From a virus (taxonomy: Duplodnaviria > Heunggongvirae > Uroviricota > Caudoviricetes): 25,810 nucleotides of DNA. The stretch lies in IMG/VR virus record IMGVR_UViG_641736224_000035; one strand, given 5' to 3'. Each line of letters opens with the position of its first letter. Position 1 is the first letter of the stretch. A model generated the notes under the pieces. It was not told the origin of the DNA and did not search any database. It saw nothing but the letters and a program-made list of their open reading frames with translations. Of this stretch, positions 3,242 through 13,607 are shown piece by piece. The position numbers were made by a program, and so were the translations under genes.

Positions 3242-3550
3242 TTAGCCGGGCTGTGTGCCAGTCTTGCGGGGTTTTTGAGAAGGCGATGTGCTTTTTGGCC
3301 CATCAGGGGAGAGAGACGGACTGATCTGCCCAGCAGCCTCATTTGTTTTTCCCGTCATAAGCCAATTCATGTACTTAAAAAAGCGAGGGTGATTAACAAT
3401 CTTGATAAGCACTTCGCCCCCTATGTTTTCAATCCGCCCCGTTTCATAACGACGCAAAGTGCCGATAGGCACATCAATCAGGCCGCAAAATTCTTCGCGC
3501 GTTAAATCCTCTGATTCACGAATCACTCTAATTTTTTCACCGATAAGCAT
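3242..3550 (-). CDS. Immunity repressor (P2 C-like), about 103 aa
   Basis: Small ORF directly upstream of and co-oriented with int, divergent from the early operon; helix-turn-helix-like segment (DLTREEFCGLIDVPIGTLRRYETGR). ATG at 3548-3550 chosen; the GTG at 3586 would place the start inside the operator palindrome. Confidence 0.65.
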   Translation of the reverse strand: MLIGEKIRVIRESEDLTREEFCGLIDVPIGTLRRYETGRIENIGGEVLIKIVNHPRFFKYMNWLMTGKTNEAAGQISPSLSPDGPKSTSPSQKPRKTGTQPG

Positions 3551-3646
3551 TGACAGTGTTCCTATAAGTACACTAAGCTTGCGCACAAGGTGTACTTATA
3601 AGTACACCAAGTCACAAACAACCACAGATAGCGCAGGTTATCACAC
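3551..3646. promoter_or_regulatory. Lysis/lysogeny switch region with palindromic operator
   Basis: Perfect 20-bp palindrome GGTGTACTTATAAGTACACC at 3589-3608, and a further copy of its half-site TATAAGTACAC at 3563-3573, between divergent repressor (start 3550) and cox-like (start 3647) genes. Exact -35/-10 elements not confidently placed. Confidence 0.5.
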
Positions 3647-3925
3647 ATGGCAAAAGTCCTGAACACACACGAACAGGCAGACTTTGAGCGTTTAGCAGCG
3701 TTCTATCCCTACCGCGATGAGCATGGGTTACCAGTACTTGAAGAAAGCCTGAAAGATTACGCAAAGCGTACCAACCAAGCTGTTAACACAGTGAAAAGAC
3801 AGGCTGACAGAGGTTCAATTCCCATCAACCAGGATGAAAAGAACTCAAGACGCACAGTAAATCTCTTCGCTCTTTTCCTGAAAACAATCAGGAGCGCAGA
3901 AAAATACGTGCAGATGACAAAATAA
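3647..3925 (+). CDS. First gene of early operon; Cox/Apl-like excisionase-regulator by position and size (92 aa)
   Basis: ATG 3647 verified; small ORF divergent from the repressor, as for P2 cox / 186 apl. Assignment is positional, not by recognised sequence. Confidence 0.5.
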   Translation: MAKVLNTHEQADFERLAAFYPYRDEHGLPVLEESLKDYAKRTNQAVNTVKRQADRGSIPINQDEKNSRRTVNLFALFLKTIRSAEKYVQMTK

Positions 3926-3939
3926 CGAGGTGTCATTTT

Positions 3940-4278
3940 ATGCTGAAGCAACGCCGTAATTTTCGTACCGGAACAGAACGCCACGCTAACCGTTTCACTA
4001 CCAGTGCATCACGCAGCAACATCCGCTACAGCCTGAGTGATACACACGCAACGCCGGATGGCTACCCAGTAAAACAAATCGGCGAGCACGCCTGGCTGAT
4101 TGAGAAAGCTGGAATCGTGATCCACAAATGCCCACGCAATCCGTTTACCGGAAACCGCATTTTTGCATTGAGCTGTGGCGACAATCAGTTCGGGCAGGAT
4201 TTCACATTATACGAAGCACTTCGCACGGTTGATCGTCTGCTTCGCGGGCAAAGTTTTATTAAACAGGCTGATTTATAA
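3940..4278 (+). CDS. Hypothetical early protein (112 aa)
   Basis: ORF with GAGGTG Shine-Dalgarno upstream; co-oriented in the early operon. Confidence 0.5.
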   Translation: MLKQRRNFRTGTERHANRFTTSASRSNIRYSLSDTHATPDGYPVKQIGEHAWLIEKAGIVIHKCPRNPFTGNRIFALSCGDNQFGQDFTLYEALRTVDRLLRGQSFIKQADL

Positions 4279-6864: not shown

Positions 6865-7250
6865 TTGACGCTCATGACTTCACAAGATGGGTGCGCACAC
6901 AGGACACCCGTCTGGCTCCCGTTCTTCAGGGATTATTTGATCTCTACATCCGTGGTCGTGACAACAGAGCACGCACCACAAAACCGGAGAATGCAGACAC
7001 CCTTTATTTCACAGTAGACGACTGCTACCGCGTGGACTTCACACCACACGGGCTGGCGTTGCACTGCCTGACACCACACGGAGAATCACTGCTGGCGTAT
7101 TACGACTCCCCGGCCTCCGTATTTGCGGCAATGCTGGCGCATCGCACTGCTGGCGGGTGTGCCTCGCTGAGTGAATACACCGCTGAATTTAACCGCCTTT
7201 CTGCCCTCTTCTCGCAGGAGTGGCAGCGCGTGACGGGATACCAGCCATGA
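6861..7250 (+). CDS. Hypothetical protein upstream of the replication gene (129 aa)
   Basis: ATG 6861 verified; stop overlaps the A start (ATGA at 7247-7250). Confidence 0.55.
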   Translation: MIDAHDFTRWVRTQDTRLAPVLQGLFDLYIRGRDNRARTTKPENADTLYFTVDDCYRVDFTPHGLALHCLTPHGESLLAYYDSPASVFAAMLAHRTAGGCASLSEYTAEFNRLSALFSQEWQRVTGYQP

Positions 7251-10087
7251 ATGAGTTTGCATGGAGCTGGAATGAACCACGGCCAGCCATTGATCCGGCC
7301 AGATTTACGGAGCACAGGCAGGAAACTGAAACCGACCTGCAACGCGCCATCCGTTACTACCTTGAGGCAGACAAAAAGGCTCTGGAAGAACAGGAAGCGA
7401 AGGAGGAAGCCTTTTTCGCACAATCCACCGTGGGTAAAAAACTCATGGCATCCCTTGAGGAAGCCGGACAGCGTGAAAAGCTGGCACAAAGCATCATCAG
7501 CAAGCGTCAGGCAACAGAACAAGACCCGGTGGCCCGTGCTTTTGCCACACTGAAGGTGCTTCCCGTTTATCTGCGTGAACCTCTGAGCCGCCACCTCTCT
7601 TTCCTGCGCAAAAAACAGGAAGCCGATCGCCAGAAAGGCAAAAAGAGCTGGCAGGCTGAACGCTACGCGCGCGGAACCCTGCGCAAAATATTCGAACGCC
7701 TGGACCGCACCGACCACCGCTGGCTGACACCGGGTTATCGCTCCCTTGCCGGACGCGAACGCCTGGATGATTTGCTTTACCTGCCGCAGCTCAACAAGCA
7801 CCAGATACAGACGCTGGCCACCATGACGGCGGCGATGTTCAGCAGCACCTTCGAAAAACTCTGCGATGGCTTTGGCGCGACCGATGGTGAGCTGACCATG
7901 GATGTAACGCTGAAGGCGTATCAGATGCTGGCCCGCATGGCGTTACACCTGCACGCCATGCCTCCACATTATGACGCACTGACAACAGACAAAGACCGGA
8001 GGAACGAACCGGACACGGAGCTGCTGCCGGGCGCAATCCTTCGCCTGACCTGTGCGGAATGGTGGAAACGCAAACTGTGGCTGTTACGTTGCGAGTGGCG
8101 GGAAGAACAACTCCGCGCCGCCTGTCTGGTTTCCAGAAAAACATCACCCTATCTGAGCCAGGACGCGTTAAGCGAGTTTCGCGCACAGCGCGAGAAAACA
8201 CGCGATTTCCTGAAAAGTTTCATGCTGGAAAATGAAGACGGGTTCACGATTGATCTCGAGACGGTGTATTACGCGGGAGTAAGTAACCCGGTTCACCGTA
8301 AGGCAGAAATGATGGCCACCATGAAGGGGCTGGAACTTCTGGCCGAAGCCCGTGGCGACAGAGCGGTGTTTCTGACTGTCACCTGCCCGTCAAAATACCA
8401 CGCAACAACGGAGAACGGTCATCCGAATCCCAAATGGAACGGGGCCACAATGCGCGACTCCAGCGATTACCTGGTTAACACGTTTTTTGCGGCGGTCCGC
8501 AAAAAACTGAACCGCGACGGCCTGCGCTGGTATGGCATCCGCACGGTGGAGCCTCACCATGACGGCACTGTGCACTGGCATATGATGGTCTTTGCACATC
8601 CGGACGAGATTGAAACCATCGTGTCCCACGTCTGCGATATTGCCATTCAGGAAGACCGCCACGAGCTGGGCGATGACATAACTCCGCGTTTTAAGGCGGA
8701 GTACGTCGACGGCTCAAAAGGCACGCCAACCAGCTACATCGCCACCTACATCGGAAAGAACCTGGACAGCCGCGCCGTGGATGGCATCGACCCGAAAACG
8801 GGCAAGCCACGCGTTGACCACGAAACAGGTAAATCAATGGCCGAGAGCGTGGAGCGCGCCATCGGCTGGGCGCGCCTTCACCGGGTCCGTCAGTTCCAGT
8901 TCTTTGGCATCCCCTCCCGTCAGGTGTGGCGTGAACTGCGCCGCCTTGCCAGCCAGATGGCACGCAATCCGGAAGGCCCGCAACGGCTGAAGGATGACGC
9001 AATGGACGCGGTACTCGCTGCCGCTGATGCCGGATGTTTTGCCACCTACATTGAGAAACAGGGTGGCGTACTTGTTCCACGCAAAGACTACCTGATTCGC
9101 ACCGCCTACGACCTCGCAGATGAGCTGAACGATTACGGTGAACAGAGCGTACAGATTTACGGGATCTGGTCGCCGCTCATTGGGGAGTCTTCCCGCGTAT
9201 GCACGCATCCGGATAACTGGAAGCTGGTAAGACGCAAACCGGAAGCGGAAGACAGCGCCCGCGAAAATGGTTTTGACCTTCAGGGCGGCCCTGCCGCCCC
9301 TTGGACTCGTGGCAATAACTGTCCCCGTGTACAGGAAACAGGCAACAACGGGACAGAACAGCCGGAAGAACGGCCAGCACCGTGGCCGCAGCTTCCTGAC
9401 GGCGTTGAAGTAAATGAATGGATGCGCTCACTGAAACGGCACGAACGCCGGGCGCTGATGCGTTCGCTTCGTGACAAACAGGCAAAAAACAGCAGCGATG
9501 AAATGCAGAACTGGACACAGAGCCGCAAACAGCAGCGGCCTTTGCCTGATAACCACGAGTTACTCGCTAAAGAATGGCGGGAGTCTGCTGAATCTCTCGG
9601 CCTGCATATCGGTGAACAACAGATGCAGCACCTGTTACGGGGCGGCAGTCTGTACGTTGACGGCAGCATCATTGCACCGCAGGGATTTGAAATTGTACGC
9701 AAACCGGATACCCGCCCGGACAGCCGAATCACGCAGCTCTGGCAGCGTCTGAGCCGTAATCATGGCGTAAGCAGCACGGAGATCCGCCATAACCCGGTCG
9801 CCAGCTATCTGGCACAGCTGGGGGCATCAGACCCTGAAGCCGCCGCACGCCTGGCATCCACACTTCAGCAGGACCAGAACACCATGAAAACACCCGTTAC
9901 CGTGCTTTCTGACATGCTGCGCGCCATCCGCGACGCAGAGCACGCACAGAGAATCAGTGAAACCACTGAACGCGCCAGCCGCAAAGCAGACCTGCTGCGG
10001 GGTGGCCTGACCAGTGGAAACAAAAAACAGACAGAAACGGGACTCACGAATCCCGTAAATGAGCAAAAAACGCGCAGCGATATATGA
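7247..10087 (+). CDS. A: Rolling-circle replication initiation endonuclease (P2 gpA family), about 946 aa
   Basis: Central region ...VFLTVTCPSKYH...TVHWHMMVF...TPTSYIATYIGKN... matches the gpA-type HUH/tyrosine nicking motif as remembered. Start taken at ATG 7247; the GTG at 7220 is an alternative. Confidence 0.85.
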   Translation: MNEFAWSWNEPRPAIDPARFTEHRQETETDLQRAIRYYLEADKKALEEQEAKEEAFFAQSTVGKKLMASLEEAGQREKLAQSIISKRQATEQDPVARAFATLKVLPVYLREPLSRHLSFLRKKQEADRQKGKKSWQAERYARGTLRKIFERLDRTDHRWLTPGYRSLAGRERLDDLLYLPQLNKHQIQTLATMTAAMFSSTFEKLCDGFGATDGELTMDVTLKAYQMLARMALHLHAMPPHYDALTTDKDRRNEPDTELLPGAILRLTCAEWWKRKLWLLRCEWREEQLRAACLVSRKTSPYLSQDALSEFRAQREKTRDFLKSFMLENEDGFTIDLETVYYAGVSNPVHRKAEMMATMKGLELLAEARGDRAVFLTVTCPSKYHATTENGHPNPKWNGATMRDSSDYLVNTFFAAVRKKLNRDGLRWYGIRTVEPHHDGTVHWHMMVFAHPDEIETIVSHVCDIAIQEDRHELGDDITPRFKAEYVDGSKGTPTSYIATYIGKNLDSRAVDGIDPKTGKPRVDHETGKSMAESVERAIGWARLHRVRQFQFFGIPSRQVWRELRRLASQMARNPEGPQRLKDDAMDAVLAAADAGCFATYIEKQGGVLVPRKDYLIRTAYDLADELNDYGEQSVQIYGIWSPLIGESSRVCTHPDNWKLVRRKPEAEDSARENGFDLQGGPAAPWTRGNNCPRVQETGNNGTEQPEERPAPWPQLPDGVEVNEWMRSLKRHERRALMRSLRDKQAKNSSDEMQNWTQSRKQQRPLPDNHELLAKEWRESAESLGLHIGEQQMQHLLRGGSLYVDGSIIAPQGFEIVRKPDTRPDSRITQLWQRLSRNHGVSSTEIRHNPVASYLAQLGASDPEAAARLASTLQQDQNTMKTPVTVLSDMLRAIRDAEHAQRISETTERASRKADLLRGGLTSGNKKQTETGLTNPVNEQKTRSDI

Positions 10088-10136
10088 GGCGCGCACAAAA
10101 CAGGCAAAAACGGGATTTCAGAATCCCGTAAACGAT
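10035..10136. repeat. Two 29-bp dyad-containing direct repeats (candidate parC-like centromere/operator)
   Basis: aaacgggactcacgaatcccgtaaatga (10035-10063, inside the last codons of A) and aaacgggatttcagaatcccgtaaacga (10108-10136, intergenic); each holds an inverted repeat acggga...tcccgt. They sit directly upstream of the ParM-like gene. Confidence 0.45.
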
Positions 10137-10163
10137 TAATTAATCAACATAAGGAAAACCGAC

Positions 10164-11123
10164 ATGAAAATTTACATCGACGACGGCTCCACCAACATCA
10201 AGCTGGCATGGACTGAGAACGGCGAACGCCGCAACGCCATCAGCCCGAACAGCTTCAAGTCGGAATGGTCTGCGCCGTTCGGTGGCTCGCAGCCTGCTAA
10301 CTACATGCTTGATGGCGTGCGCTATGGTTTTGATCCGGTCAGCGATCGCTTTGTCCAGACGACCGACACGCAATACCAGTACAGCGATGTGAATGTCATT
10401 GCCATTCATCACGCGCTGGTCAAATCAGACATCACGCCACAGGAAGTGGATGTGGTTGTTACCCTGCCACTGAGCGAATATTTCGACACAAACGCACAGC
10501 CGGACATGGCCAACATCAACCGCAAAAAAGCGAACGTCATGCGCCCGGTGGAGTACCAGAACGGCGAAGCATTCACTATCCGTAACGTACGGGTTATGCC
10601 TGAATCCATTCCGGCTGGCTTTAAAGCACTGGCTGACATGAGTCCGTTTGAATCCCTGCTGATTGTGGATTTGGGCGGAACCACGCTGGATGTGGCAAAG
10701 GTTCAGGGGCAACTGGCAGGTATCAGCCAGGTGTTTTGCGATCCACACGTAGGCGTTTCTCTTATGGCCGATGCCGTACTGTCGGTGATGGCCACTAACG
10801 GTATGCGCACCAGTCACCACATCGCCAATACCATTATCGAACATCGCCATAATGAAGCCTGGCTGCGCCAGCACATCCACAATGACGCGCATTACGCCAG
10901 CCTGATGGCGGTTATTCGTGAAAAGGAAGAAACACTGAAACAACGCGTGATCCGCGCGCTGGCGGTTTTTTCGGGTTACGGGCGGGTGATGGTTGTCGGT
11001 GGCGGGGCGGAGATTGTGGCACCCGCTATCCGCGAAGCCTGCGGAGTTAATGCGACTTTCATCGCGGACGGGGTGCCACAGTTTGCTCTGGTTAATGGGC
11101 TGTACGCAATGGACAAGGAGTAA
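10164..11123 (+). CDS. parM: Actin-like segregation ATPase, ParM/StbA family (319 aa)
   Basis: Recognised blocks shared with plasmid R1 ParM: MKIYIDDGSTNIKLAW, ISPNSFKSEW, YSDVNVIAIHHAL, VMPESIPAGF, SLLIVDLGGTTLDV, GYGRVMVVGGGAEIV, ALVNGLYAM. AAGGA Shine-Dalgarno before ATG 10164. Confidence 0.85.
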   Translation: MKIYIDDGSTNIKLAWTENGERRNAISPNSFKSEWSAPFGGSQPANYMLDGVRYGFDPVSDRFVQTTDTQYQYSDVNVIAIHHALVKSDITPQEVDVVVTLPLSEYFDTNAQPDMANINRKKANVMRPVEYQNGEAFTIRNVRVMPESIPAGFKALADMSPFESLLIVDLGGTTLDVAKVQGQLAGISQVFCDPHVGVSLMADAVLSVMATNGMRTSHHIANTIIEHRHNEAWLRQHIHNDAHYASLMAVIREKEETLKQRVIRALAVFSGYGRVMVVGGGAEIVAPAIREACGVNATFIADGVPQFALVNGLYAMDKE

Positions 11124-11127
11124 ACCA

Positions 11128-11439
11128 ATGACGACACCAACCAGACGGATAAGTTTCTATCTGAAGCCCGCCGCCGTCAAGAACGAAGGAGAAGCATGCG
11201 CCTGGCTGGACAGCCTTACACCAGAAGCCCGCAAAAGCGGCCAACGCGTGGCTTTTCTGGCCGGGCTGGCACTTCTGAAGACGAATCCGGCAGAGGCTTA
11301 CCGACTGGCCGCATGGGCTGATGATGAGATGTTACCTGTGACACAAATCAGCTCAAAAAAGTTTGAAGCACAGTCTGCACCAGTGGCTAAGATAACCAGC
11401 CAGATGGCTGGGAATATCCGGGCGTTATTTCCTGAGTAA
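11128..11439 (+). CDS. parR: ParR-like centromere-binding adaptor (103 aa)
   Basis: Immediately follows parM (AAGGAG Shine-Dalgarno, ATG 11128). N-terminal RISFYLKP...LDSLTPEARKSGQRVAFLAGLAL resembles the remembered ribbon-helix-helix N-terminus of R1 ParR. Start is an internal Met of track ORF 10993..11439. Confidence 0.65.
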   Translation: MTTPTRRISFYLKPAAVKNEGEACAWLDSLTPEARKSGQRVAFLAGLALLKTNPAEAYRLAAWADDEMLPVTQISSKKFEAQSAPVAKITSQMAGNIRALFPE

Positions 11440-11525
11440 AAGCATCTGCGCGAAAAATGCTCACGTTTATAGAGACAGTATCATTCCATTTGGCACACTT
11501 ACTTCAATAATCGATCTGTTAAACA

Positions 11526-11596
11526 AATAGATTGTCTATTATCTATCGATTAAAACGATCAATTATCTTGACAGTAATGTGCCTTTTTGTAAGATC
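11526..11596 (+). promoter_or_regulatory. Candidate sigma70 promoter with upstream dyad operator
   Basis: TTGACA at 11568-11573; TAAGAT at 11590-11595 (16-bp spacer) or AAGATC at 11591-11596 (17-bp spacer); upstream symmetric motifs AATAGA/TCTATT (11526-11531 / 11535-11540) and ATAGAT/ATCTAT (11527-11532 / 11541-11546), flanked by two ATCGAT sites (11510-11515, 11545-11550). Confidence 0.4.
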
Positions 11597-11645
11597 GTTC
11601 GCATTGTGAGCGACAAGATAATTGCGCGGCATTGTCCATGCAAAA

Positions 11646-11673
11646 CGCCCCAATAGCAGCAACTATTGGGGCG
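11646..11673 (+). other. Stable hairpin in the leader of the 89-aa gene
   Basis: Perfect 11-bp inverted repeat cgccccaatag / ctattggggcg with 6-nt loop cagcaa. Confidence 0.4.
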
Positions 11674-11701
11674 TAAAACTCGGTCGGACTCACTTAACCT
11701 G

Positions 11702-11787
11702 ATATGCGTGCCTTCCGAAGTAAATCAAAATGTGCGTCGTATATTTTATTGCTTACACGCACCTCTGTAAAGGCACGCATATTTTTC
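11702..11787 (+). terminator. Candidate attenuator or small-RNA terminator (long-range 13-bp inverted repeat followed by T5)
   Basis: atatgcgtgcctt (11702-11714) is the exact reverse complement of aaggcacgcatat (11770-11782), then ttttt (11783-11787); ends 16 nt before the GTG start at 11804. Confidence 0.3.
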
Positions 11788-11803
11788 CTATGAGGTAAAT
11801 AAA

Positions 11804-12073
11804 GTGCGGGCTAAAACAGGTATTTGCAAGAACCCTCATCGTTATAATCCAACATTTCTGTCTCTCCCTGAATATCAAGGACAAGAAGGTCGGCACAAAT
11901 GCGCTGCCTGTGCTTTTGAGCTAGGCATAAAAGATGCGCTTGAAGGACGCGCTATGGCTCAGAATGATTTAGTTTTAGCTAACATTCCGTTTAGCCAGGC
12001 TGGAACTGTAAGGCACAGAGATGCCTATGAAGCATATGTTCGTGGTTGGCGATTAATAAACAGCAACAATTGA
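11804..12073 (+). CDS. Hypothetical small Cys/His-containing protein (89 aa, GTG start)
   Basis: GTG 11804 with GAGG 8 nt upstream; stop TGA 12071-12073 followed by a strong terminator. Contains C8, H12, H31, C33-x2-C36 (possible zinc-binding). Family not recognised. Confidence 0.5.
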   Translation: MRAKTGICKNPHRYNPTFLSLPEYQGQEGRHKCAACAFELGIKDALEGRAMAQNDLVLANIPFSQAGTVRHRDAYEAYVRGWRLINSNN

Positions 12074-12081
12074 TACTTTTG

Positions 12082-12106
12082 AAGCGCCGATAAGGCGCTT
12101 TTTTTG
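12082..12106 (+). terminator. Rho-independent terminator
   Basis: Stem aagcgcc/ggcgctt (12082-12088 / 12094-12100, loop gataa) followed by a T-run to 12106. Confidence 0.7.
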
Positions 12107-12388
12107 TTTGCACGATAGTGCACAAGTTTGCACAATTTTTTTGAACGACTTTTTGTACTTCCGGCCCGCGTGGTGGCTGGATCCGTCAAGGATCCGTACG
12201 TGCACAAAAAAACGCGTTTTTTCTGCGCGCAAGTGACGGGGGAACAGCCCGCGTTTCAGGGGGGTAAATAGCGTTCCCTTAACGATGTCGCAGCGACACG
12301 ACAGAATGGCCGTATTTCTCACGCTGAGCGTGAAAAATACGTGAGGGATTCTGGTTTGATGGGGTGAAAGGTAAGGCCGTCAAAATCG

Positions 12389-12423
12389 CACTGAGGCGGC
12401 GAGAACATGCAGTCAGCGCAGTG
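12389..12423. other. Candidate cos (cohesive-end) region with dyad symmetry
   Basis: cactg...cagtg dyad around ggcggcgagaacatgcagt; the GGCG(A/G)G-rich core loosely resembles the remembered P2/186 cohesive end, and it lies where cos is expected (between the accessory interval and the 3' end of Q). Low confidence. Confidence 0.3.
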
Positions 12424-12509
12424 GGATTGCGTAAGAATCTGACCGTCGATGATGGCAATAAGCAGGAAAGCGTCGTGAAATTATCTGACTGATACAGGAG
12501 CTGGAGAGT

Positions 12510-12534
12510 CGGGGCATAAATTTTTTATGCCCCG
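12510..12534. other. Hairpin downstream of Q (possible bidirectional terminator)
   Basis: cggggcataaa / tttatgccccg perfect 11-bp inverted repeat with a 3-nt loop; no clean flanking U-run on either strand. Confidence 0.35.
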
Positions 12535-12560
12535 GCGAAGCAGCAGACAAGCGAAGCGCG

Positions 12561-13607
12561 TCAGGATGTGGGCTGGGTATCTAACAGTGCGTAAGGGTTA
12601 AAGCGGATCACCTCTTCGCCAAGCCAGTCATTGATGTGCTTCATGGCCTCCATGACGGGCATCAGCTCGTTAATTGCGTAAACCCGCGCGGCCTTCTCCA
12701 CATCACCAAACGCACTTTTTTCGCCCGGCATCGCCCCCATCAGTTGCGGCGGAACGCGGTGCGCAGCCAGCACATCATCACGGGATGCCGCCTTAACATT
12801 CATGAACTCATCCTTTGCGGTGATCTGCTGGAACGGCAAAATTTGCACCCCCTCTTTGCCCCCGTTGGGCGCATGAATGAGCACGTTTTTAAACGCACCA
12901 CCACCACGTGCCCCCTGTAGCGTTTCTTTCAGGGAGTCCATGCTTTCGCGGTTTACCTGCGCTGCACCGATGTAGATGATGCACCCGGCGTGGGATCCGT
13001 TGTCGTAGTACAGTTTTCTGAACATGTCCGCCGAATGAGAAAGGCTGGCCGAGAGTAATGCGCCAAGATATTCCGGCATGCCGTAGATTTCCTGGTTAAT
13101 ATCCGGATTCATCAGGTGGCACACTTTGCCAGGACGAAACTGAAACGCATCCTTGCCATCCTGCACATACCACCATGATTCAAGATCGCTTCCGCGTCGC
13201 ATGTATTTCGCCAGGGCGTGCCGTAATTTAAGCGGTTCGCCGAGCATATTGCTCCGAAGCTCAAGGAATGCGTTACCGAACACAAACCAGTCCAGCGCCA
13301 GCGCCGAGAAATCCTGCCGGGAAAGCAGCGGGTGCGGAATATAGCAGCCGAGCAATACATTGCGCTTAAAGTAAAGCGCAGACTGATGCCAGGACGTTTG
13401 CCGGGCAGCTCTTGCCAGACCGTACCAGTCCACTGGGGTTTCATACCACCGCCCGTTATCAGCACAGTACATATTGTCCAGCAGGTCATGCCCGGTCAGG
13501 CGATAAGGACCATCAAATGTGAATGCACTGAGCGATGATTCTTTCCTGAGCGCATCAGCGAGATCAATGCGTGAACTCATGCGCACTTTTTTATTTTTTC
13601 TGCTCAT
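12561..13607 (-). CDS. Q: Portal protein (P2 gpQ family)
   Basis: 348-aa ORF adjacent to and co-oriented with the large terminase, overlapping its stop by one nt; sequence recognised as Q-like. ATG 13605-13607 verified. Confidence 0.85.
   Translation of the reverse strand: MSRKNKKVRMSSRIDLADALRKESSLSAFTFDGPYRLTGHDLLDNMYCADNGRWYETPVDWYGLARAARQTSWHQSALYFKRNVLLGCYIPHPLLSRQDFSALALDWFVFGNAFLELRSNMLGEPLKLRHALAKYMRRGSDLESWWYVQDGKDAFQFRPGKVCHLMNPDINQEIYGMPEYLGALLSASLSHSADMFRKLYYDNGSHAGCIIYIGAAQVNRESMDSLKETLQGARGGGAFKNVLIHAPNGGKEGVQILPFQQITAKDEFMNVKAASRDDVLAAHRVPPQLMGAMPGEKSAFGDVEKAARVYAINELMPVMEAMKHINDWLGEEVIRFNPYALLDTQPTS

Follow-up and report, generated by a model that had tools for sequence, protein, structure and literature searches.

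A conserved type II (ParMRC) partition cassette with a compact two-dyad candidate centromere in a P88-like temperate phage

The type II partition loci of plasmids R1/NR1 (parMRC, also called the stbAB or parA locus) and pB171 (par1) are arranged as a cis site followed by parM and then parR, and the same order is found in the DNA that we analyze here. This DNA, which we call the window, is a 25,810-nucleotide (nt) stretch from a Caudoviricetes virus (IMG/VR record IMGVR_UViG_641736224_000035). In the window, the genes for an actin-like ATPase, ParM, and a predicted centromere-binding adaptor, ParR, lie behind gene A, the replication gene of a P2-type temperate phage, and two repeat blocks, each centered on a dyad, stand directly upstream of parM.

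Actin-type partition genes have been described before in elements that are normally integrated in a chromosome. The srpMRC system of the SXT/R391 integrative and conjugative elements (ICEs) stabilizes the excised circle of R391 that is replicated by TraI, and the srpMRC centromere, which precedes the M gene, consists of only four 13-base-pair (bp) repeats, direct and inverted (Carraro et al. 2015, PMC4489591). In prophage CGP3 of Corynebacterium glutamicum, the AlpAC system is switched on early upon excision, and the circular phage DNA depends on it to replicate efficiently (Donovan et al. 2015, PMC4446434). Partition genes have also been remarked upon in relatives of the window. Pfeifer et al. 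2021 listed P88 as a putative phage-plasmid owing to its partition genes and suggested that it has both episomal and integrative states (PMC7969092), and Rousset et al. 2022 noted partition genes in P2-like phages and proposed that they serve episomal maintenance (PMC9122126). RefSeq phage and Escherichia coli records already annotate a ParM and a partitioning/stability protein at this position. The cassette is therefore an uncharacterized member of a well-known class of systems in a setting that has already been noticed, and the initial annotation of the window, which was made from its sequence, overestimated the novelty of the locus. What our comparisons add is a conserved, promoter-less candidate centromere with two dyads, a cis site for which we found no description in the (incomplete) literature searched, together with deep synteny of A, parM, and parR across enterobacterial P2-like prophages and evidence that argues against routine plasmid lysogeny.

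The window represents a P2-type temperate phage of the P88-like group (genus Xuanwuvirus, Peduoviridae). Its positions 9900-11600 match prophages of E. coli O157:H7 at 100% identity, and the identity is 94-97% for P88, 520873, PhiR44_2, Shae_phiSM, and other phages. The parM gene occupies positions 10164-11123 on the plus strand and encodes a 319-amino-acid (aa) actin-like segregation ATPase (Pfam StbA_N, E 9.7e-81; ParM C-terminal domain, E 3e-68) that aligns end to end with the structure of R1 ParM (1mwk; residues 1-316, E 7.7e-92). As is expected for the ATPase of a type II partition system, the nucleotide-binding and hydrolysis motifs of the actin fold are all intact, namely the phosphate-1 motif IDDGSTNIK, the catalytic motif MPESIPAG, the phosphate-2 motif DLGGTTLD, and the adenosine motif GGGAE. 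The PHROGs label for both ParM and ParR is "partition protein" (ParR is PHROG 2515). Among 165 related loci, 163 have an intact parM, and its ratio of nonsynonymous to synonymous substitution (dN/dS) against the window is ~0.10. Apart from this, we note that the RefSeq record of phage 503458 (NC_049341.1) presents gene A and parM each broken into several short coding sequences, and these frameshifts are probably either sequencing errors or decay.

The parR gene (11128-11439, plus strand; 103 aa) begins 4 nt past the parM stop, and so an adaptor gene lies directly downstream of the ATPase gene as in other type II systems. ParR matches the Pfam family Plasmid_stab_B (PF10784) with an E value of 9.8e-24. 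A phmmer search of the Protein Data Bank (PDB) with the single ParR sequence gave no match, and it was a profile built from ParR homologues that reached the structure of pB171 ParR (StbB), 2jd3, at an E value of 0.0046. The Pfam domains, the match of ParM to 1mwk, and this profile match bear out the view taken in the initial annotation that the gene pair is a type II ParM/ParR module, and every feature that it had placed here (A, parM, parR, and the two dyads) is present where it had put it.

The ParR sequence falls into three parts, with an invariant N-terminal strand, TRRISFYLKP, a hypervariable linker, and a conserved C-terminal segment, NI(R/Q)ALFPE. A ribbon-helix-helix DNA-binding domain joined to a ParM-binding tail is the known layout of the ParR proteins of R1, pB171, and pSK41, and the three-part pattern of the phage protein is what this layout predicts. 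The ParR of a plasmid-type relative (our locus L012) has the same three parts; its C-terminal NARQMFG resembles the phage segment, which is invariant or nearly so, and its predicted DNA-facing residues on the beta-strand are K-M-Y versus R-S-Y in the phage. The gene is intact in 151 of 154 loci, and the N-terminal 62 codons have a dN/dS of ~0.15. In contrast to this nearly invariant N terminus and to ParM, which is at least 92% identical, the linker and C-terminal half of ParR (codons 63-103, positions 11314-11439) are strongly mosaic among E. coli prophages, with a synonymous divergence (dS) of 0.60 and allele classes ranging from ~98% down to ~55% identity. This pattern suggests that there are recombination breakpoints inside parR, beside a hotspot of variable cargo genes. 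Even an allele with only 54% overall identity keeps residues 1-17, and the same dyads lie alongside it.

The candidate cis site takes up the final ~143 bp before the parM ATG (10021-10163), of which the gap between A and parM provides only 76 bp. It contains a direct repeat of 42 nt at 81% identity, with repeat block 1 at 10021-10062, repeat block 2 at 10094-10135, and a start-to-start distance of 73 bp. Each of these candidate parC-like blocks holds one exact copy of ACGGGA-N8-TCCCGT: dyad 1, ACGGGACT-CACG-AATCCCGT, is at 10037-10056, and dyad 2, ACGGGATT-TCAG-AATCCCGT, is at 10110-10129. We used the exact pattern because a search allowing 2 mismatches gave an uninformative estimate of chance. 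The exact pattern is found nowhere else in the 25.8 kb, and shuffled sequences are expected to contain 0.00 copies. Repeat block 1 overlays the final ~65 nt of gene A, and dyad 1 within it ends 29 nt before the gene A stop and covers codons about -17 to -10, while dyad 2 is in the A-parM gap, 34 nt upstream of the parM ATG. The initial annotation had reported two repeats of 29 bp upstream of parM, one of them in the last codons of A. There are indeed two repeats and one is inside A, but they are longer than was reported, and the one inside A stops short of the last codons. The inter-block core (10063-10093) is GC-rich and holds the gene A stop codon (TGA, 10085-10087), and block 2 is followed by a conserved leader on the plus strand (10136-10163) with a ATTAATCAA box and then the Shine-Dalgarno sequence AAGGA. 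Thus, two repeated candidate ParR sites are located directly upstream of parM, where the centromere of a type II system would be. We also observe that the core at ~10070-10095 forms a GC-rich near-palindrome, CGCGC...GCGCG, around the gene A stop codon.

Variation within the window clade was examined in 78 unique upstream variants. An alignment made with MAFFT was blurred by a few sequences with indels, so the sequences were lined up again without gaps, starting from the ATG. Hardly any change is seen in the GGGA/TCCC cores, whereas the loops, the outermost positions of the arms, and most of 10071-10095 vary, and this last stretch is the most variable of the region. Changes in the loop can lengthen the palindrome, as in GGGATTTAAAAATCCC. 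The leader is nearly invariant, and its ATTAATCAA box could be a weak -10-like element. Among ~160 related loci, nearly all have both dyads, with both GGG-N10-CCC cores in most and one mutated core in ~25. The initial annotation had stated that a parC-like role would be refuted if close relatives kept parMR without the repeats, and this is not what is seen. In phage 503458, the left arm of dyad 2 reads GAGGGA in place of ACGGGA.

Close relatives are too similar overall for the presence of the dyads to be informative, and therefore we sought diverged homologues. Scans of contigs yielded ParM relatives at either at least 97% or ~50% identity only, a first scan of viral sequences gave close relatives alone, a scan with the Hafnia query had no match, and the intermediates were found by searching for protein homologues and then taking the contigs that encode them. 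ParM homologues with 62% identity (Hafnia, Plesiomonas) and with 53-58% identity (Serratia, Enterobacter-type) all lie in P2-like prophages, and the gene order in those prophages is gene A, parM, a Plasmid_stab_B gene, variable cargo, ogr, and the portal gene. In these diverged prophages parM directly follows A, except in Hafnia, where one extra open reading frame (ORF) of 167 aa lies between them. Because all of the homologues with 53-62% identity are in P2-like prophages and the closest plasmid ParM proteins are at most ~52% identical, parMR reads as an old phage-resident cassette of the P2-like lineage and not as a recent insertion from a plasmid.

The diverged prophages of Hafnia and Plesiomonas also carry the dyad pair. 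Relative to parM, the two GGG-N10-CCC cores are at -125/-52 in the window, -128/-55 in Hafnia, and -131/-59 in Plesiomonas, which corresponds to a spacing of 73, 73, and 72 bp, respectively. The pattern matches 3, 5, and 3 times in total in the respective sequences of 25.8, 9, and 9 kb, and the sole pair spaced by 72-73 bp in each of them is the one upstream of parM. When each 140-nt upstream segment was shuffled, 0 of 200,000 shuffles yielded a pair at such a spacing. The leader sequence ATTAATCAA..TAAGGAA is found in both prophages as well. Since the pair, its spacing, and its offset from parM are all kept at 62% ParM identity in flanking sequence that is unrelated, the dyads are very likely the cis site of the par module, as the initial annotation had proposed in calling the repeats parC-like. 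We also considered the A-rich tracts of the window, AAAC(A/G)G(G/A), which occur twice in each block 10 bp apart, as additional iterons or phased bends; they are not conserved in Hafnia or Plesiomonas and were rejected.

In the Hafnia prophage (L018), dyad 1 is carried by the extra ORF (3453-3956), which has no Pfam match and whose 167-aa product is not significantly similar to the gene A protein (gpA) of the window over the C-terminal 295 aa of the latter. The Hafnia and window gpA proteins are only 34% identical while their ParM proteins are 62% identical, which suggests that P2-like backbones exchange parMRC as a module. The initial annotation had raised the possibility that the overlap of a repeat with A couples expression of A to binding of the partition complex. 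Such coupling is not supported, since dyad 1 of Hafnia lies in a different ORF, and because the cis site needs ~143 bp where the gap has 76 bp, the overlap of dyad 1 with an ORF looks like a matter of geometry.

The conserved feature is a geometry of double-stranded DNA, with inverted GGGA-type half-sites one helical turn apart and the two sites seven turns apart. The ParR proteins of Hafnia and Plesiomonas have the N-terminal strand TRR(I/V)SFYL together with the dyad pair. In the Serratia/Enterobacter clade (L105, 2884-2974; L104; L021/L103), the ParR strand is NRKISFYL and the cis architecture is different: an imperfect palindrome of ~66 bp that has GGGAAC at its ends, GGGAACGATATAGAAAAAT...ATTTTTCTGTTTCGTTCCC, is accompanied by another palindrome around TTTAAACGG. 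The ParR strand and the cis architecture thus co-vary, although there are two classes only. The plasmid-type relatives L012 (3363-3467) and L016 (3364-3457), which have ~51% ParM identity, instead contain two blocks of ~11-bp TTCTC-type iterons, and the start-to-start spacing of these blocks is 72 and 73 bp, respectively, the same as that of the phage dyads. A spacing of 72-73 bp may therefore be a general constraint of the ParR family.

Consensus scans detected no sigma-70-like promoter in 9800-10164, with the ATTAATCAA box falling below the scan threshold, and no intrinsic terminator on the plus strand between A and parM. The same promoter scan finds TTGCCA-16-TATAAT (11/12) in the core of the plasmid relative L012, flanked by its iteron blocks. 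Thus, where the core of a plasmid parC contains a promoter that is repressed by ParR, the core in the phage contains the end of the upstream ORF.

The comparisons show the gene identities, the selection on parM and parR, and the conservation of the cis site. From these, we favor the view, with a probability of roughly 0.6, that the locus is a complete and working ParMRC cassette that forms a backbone module of the P88 lineage, has a compact two-dyad candidate centromere, and acts on the phage circle after excision or infection. In this mechanism, ParR dimers would bind the two GGGAyT-N4-AAyCCC dyads, which would be on the same face of the DNA because 73 bp is ~seven helical turns, and the resulting complex would reach from the end of gene A across the A-parM gap. 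ParR would then use its conserved C-terminal helix to capture the ends of ParM-ATP filaments, and a growing filament would push phage DNA circles apart. Because there is no intrinsic terminator and no recognizable promoter between A and parM, the most likely source of parMR transcripts is read-through from the early replication operon, with which the two genes would be co-transcribed. ParM and ParR would in that case be made only from the extrachromosomal genome, following infection or excision, while the integrated prophage, being repressed, would not express them. More speculatively, ParR bound at the dyads may act as a roadblock that limits read-through into parMR. Rolling-circle synthesis initiated by gpA in P2-type phages gives rise to monomeric circles, and the likely benefit of the cassette is that it separates, distributes, or positions these circles, so that phage replication or packaging would be efficient or each daughter cell would be sure to retain a copy until integration or lysis.

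Several points weigh against this proposal. A lytic replicon at high copy number has no obvious need for partition, and ~6% of prophage copies with the gene A type of the window are without parM, so the cassette is dispensable for persistence of the prophage. Two dyads are few compared with the three iterons per block of the plasmid relatives, and R1 parC has ten iterons. Binding of ParR to the dyads is inferred from their conservation and from a co-variation that comprises only two classes. An AlphaFold2 model of the ParR monomer, made with a 15-sequence alignment, had a mean predicted local distance difference test (pLDDT) score of 56 and adds no structural support; its N-terminal strand was not formed, as is expected since a ribbon-helix-helix protein is an obligate dimer. 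The promoter and terminator scans were simple consensus scans, and a weak or activator-dependent promoter near the ATTAATCAA box is possible, which would allow expression from the integrated prophage. In the incomplete literature searched, we found no experiment on the cassette.

The location of the cassette in sequenced genomes bears on whether it serves a plasmid state. In 5,426 complete E. coli genomes, parM is found in 1303 (~24%) at a total of 1,443 places, and the hosts of the lineage include O157:H7, enterotoxigenic E. coli (ETEC), and ST131 strains. The initial annotation had offered episomal, phage-plasmid-like maintenance as one possible role, and P88-like phages might, instead of integrating, remain in the cell as low-copy plasmid prophages that gpA replicates and ParMRC segregates. 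Pfeifer et al. 2021 place P88 among putative phage-plasmids with episomal and integrative states (PMC7969092), Rousset et al. 2022 suggest the same of roughly one in four P2-like phages of E. coli (PMC9122126), and one circular 34,461-bp replicon (NZ_CP148288.1, "plasmid" of E. coli Z1323PEC0009) is a complete P88-like genome with integrase, C, Cox, A, parMR, and structural genes. However, 1441 of the 1443 places are on chromosome records and only 2 are on plasmid records, and a database of 72,556 plasmids gave 7 matches, among which this is the one phage-sized circle and the rest are large replicons or mislabeled fragments. A "plasmid" match in Shigella boydii that we considered as an episome turned out to be a linear phage fragment. 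The circular record may be a true episome, but assembly of phage DNA that had excised spontaneously and was replicating would explain it equally well. Furthermore, the phages have kept the integrase, the C repressor, and Cox, and no plasmid-type copy-control replicon is seen, the rolling-circle initiator gpA being the sole initiator. We conclude that stable plasmid lysogeny is at best rare and regard the dual lifestyle as unlikely, although a transient or rare episomal state may occur. We are equally doubtful about a facultative phage-plasmid in which gpA and a minimal two-dyad ParMRC keep a segregated low-copy circle for generations, as a carrier or pre-integration state, until integration or lysis. 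At the other extreme, the cassette might be a neutral passenger, the decaying remnant of a past recombination between plasmid and phage that has no current function. The 3' part of a gene A of the window type is found at 1,534 places in 1,371 of the same genomes, and ~94% of these copies retain parM while ~90 of the 1,534 places have no megablast match to it; such copies, like the fragmented parM of the phage 503458 record, are what a passenger would leave. Yet the low dN/dS of parM, its intactness in 163 of 165 loci with intact catalytic motifs, the synteny in four genera at 53-62% ParM identity, and the conserved cores of the non-coding dyads are all at odds with decay, and we consider this reading highly improbable. 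The copies without parM are, in their own right, natural deletion variants, and they indicate that loss or replacement of the cassette can occur. As a further side observation, a 226-kb contig (NZ_JBQPOM010000071.1) assigned to the Gram-positive "Vagococcus sp. WN89Y" has an enterobacterial prophage region with ParM 97% and gpA 92% identical to those of the window, which probably reflects contamination or a mislabeled assembly.

Two other readings concern what ParM, ParR, and the dyads do. ParM and ParR might have been repurposed for conflict between phages or between phage and plasmid (exclusion, incompatibility, or defense) rather than segregation. The cassette is at the gpA side of the gpA-gpQ defense hotspot of P2 (Rousset et al. 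2022, PMC9122126), variable cargo follows immediately after parR, and the C-terminal half of ParR is far more mosaic than ParM. Unlike the cargo, however, parMR keeps the same position and sequence throughout the lineage, and neither ParM nor ParR has a PADLOC match. The ATPase motifs, an adaptor with a predicted ParM-binding tail, and the cis repeats have all been kept under purifying selection, and a role in conflict would not account for this. ParR is also too diverged to compete for plasmid centromeres, since its predicted DNA-facing residues differ from those of the plasmid protein; an identity of 28% to an unverified R1 ParR sequence is a lead only, and L012 ParR was used for the comparison instead. 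Such a role is thus a weak contender. With regard to the dyads, they might not be sites for ParR but might form hairpins in RNA, act as intrinsic terminators, or serve gene A in cis, for example as its origin or nick site. P2-type phages do have their origin inside gene A, a terminator scan of the minus strand picks out both dyads (an 8-bp stem with a T-rich tail), and in the window the RNA folds at -8.7 and -10.7 kcal/mol with z scores of -2.7 and -3.4. In Hafnia and Plesiomonas, on the other hand, folding is weak (-4.5 to -4.9 kcal/mol, with 3 of 4 dyads indistinguishable from shuffles) and there is no T run, and yet the GGG/CCC positions and the spacing of 72-73 bp are kept, so a stable hairpin is not what is conserved. 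Nothing nearby within the cassette is transcribed leftward into the dyads. Because dyad 1 of Hafnia is in an ORF other than A and gpA has diverged so much further than ParM, the dyads travel with parMR and not with A. An unverified P2 origin or nick-site sequence had no match in the window, which is weak and uninformative. We give this explanation very little weight and retain a working cassette that acts on the phage circle as the preferred reading.

The genes around the cassette follow the P2 layout. In the P88 annotation, the order is integrase, C repressor, Cox, early genes, A, ParM, the partition protein, and a few small ORFs, after which come the portal and terminase genes on the opposite strand. 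In the window, gene A is an ORF on the plus strand at 7220-10087 that encodes gpA, an HUH rolling-circle replication initiator (Pfam Phage_GPA, E 1.5e-129) labeled "replication endonuclease" in P88 and E. coli RefSeq records. Since the P88 annotation gives 940 aa, translation probably starts ~45 nt past the GTG at 7220. The variable cargo slot of P2-like phages (11440-12560), whose gene content differs among relatives, follows parR and extends to the portal gene (12561-13607, minus strand). In the window it has an 89-aa ORF (11804-12073) that lacks a Pfam match. It also has a promoter-like sequence, TTGACA-16-TAAGAT, at 11568-11595 and, just upstream of the latter, a 26-nt imperfect inverted repeat at 11507-11566.

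The question at stake is why an integrating phage, of a lineage present in ~24% of complete E. coli genomes, keeps a partition machine under strong purifying selection, and the conserved two-dyad site is a concrete target that can be mutated to address it. If the cassette stabilizes excised or pre-integration circles, the precedents of srpMRC and AlpAC would extend to enterobacterial P2-type phages. If there is a true plasmid state, P2-like phages would join the phage-plasmids and, with the lineage in roughly one in four E. coli genomes, a widespread lifestyle would have been overlooked, and a facultative phage-plasmid would have a natural ParMRC centromere reduced to two ParR sites with no autoregulated promoter. 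If neither stabilization nor a plasmid state is found, ParMRC would have a new role. In any of these cases, the compact, promoter-less candidate centromere would be a useful minimal system for studying the assembly of ParR on parC.

The phage cassette resembles the plasmid loci in its proteins. The phage and R1 ParM proteins align over their full length with all ATPase motifs, and phage ParR belongs to the same Pfam family as the ParR proteins of R1 and pB171. The two repeat blocks ~72-73 bp apart, directly upstream of parM, are shared with the plasmid-type loci L012 and L016. Unlike the plasmid loci, however, the phage cassette is in an integrating P2-type phage, and its ParM is only ~52% identical to that of any plasmid. 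The cis site also differs from a plasmid parC in that each block is centered on a single 20-bp dyad and not on several direct 11-bp iterons of the TTCTC type, and in that the core holds the end of the upstream ORF in place of an autoregulated promoter.

Among phages, the sole other ParM carrier in the phage database is P1-like phage D6, whose StbA-type ParM is 47% identical to that of the window, and the P2-like plasmid prophage KS14 was grouped with P88 by Pfeifer et al. 2021 (PMC7969092). D6 and KS14 are maintained as plasmids, whereas P88-like phages have an integrase and are chromosomal in >99% of their E. coli occurrences. The other two known systems come from integrated elements, and the role of the cassette in an integrating phage is likely analogous to theirs. 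AlpAC with its alpS site resembles the phage cassette in that an integrated prophage encodes an actin-like filament protein and an adaptor, and the AlpAC adaptor binds to repeats upstream of its own operon. AlpAC is nonetheless unrelated in its actin-like family, its host phylum, and its type of phage, AlpC is not a close homologue of ParM, and the role proposed for AlpAC is in transport and replication efficiency and not in inheritance. The srpMRC system resembles the phage cassette in being an actin-type partition system of a normally integrated element whose circle is replicated by an initiator of the rolling-circle type. It differs in that its host element is an ICE and in that SrpM and SrpR are distant from R1 ParM and ParR, while the proteins of the phage clearly belong to the R1 family; function has been demonstrated for srpMRC, while the phage cassette is known from its sequence.

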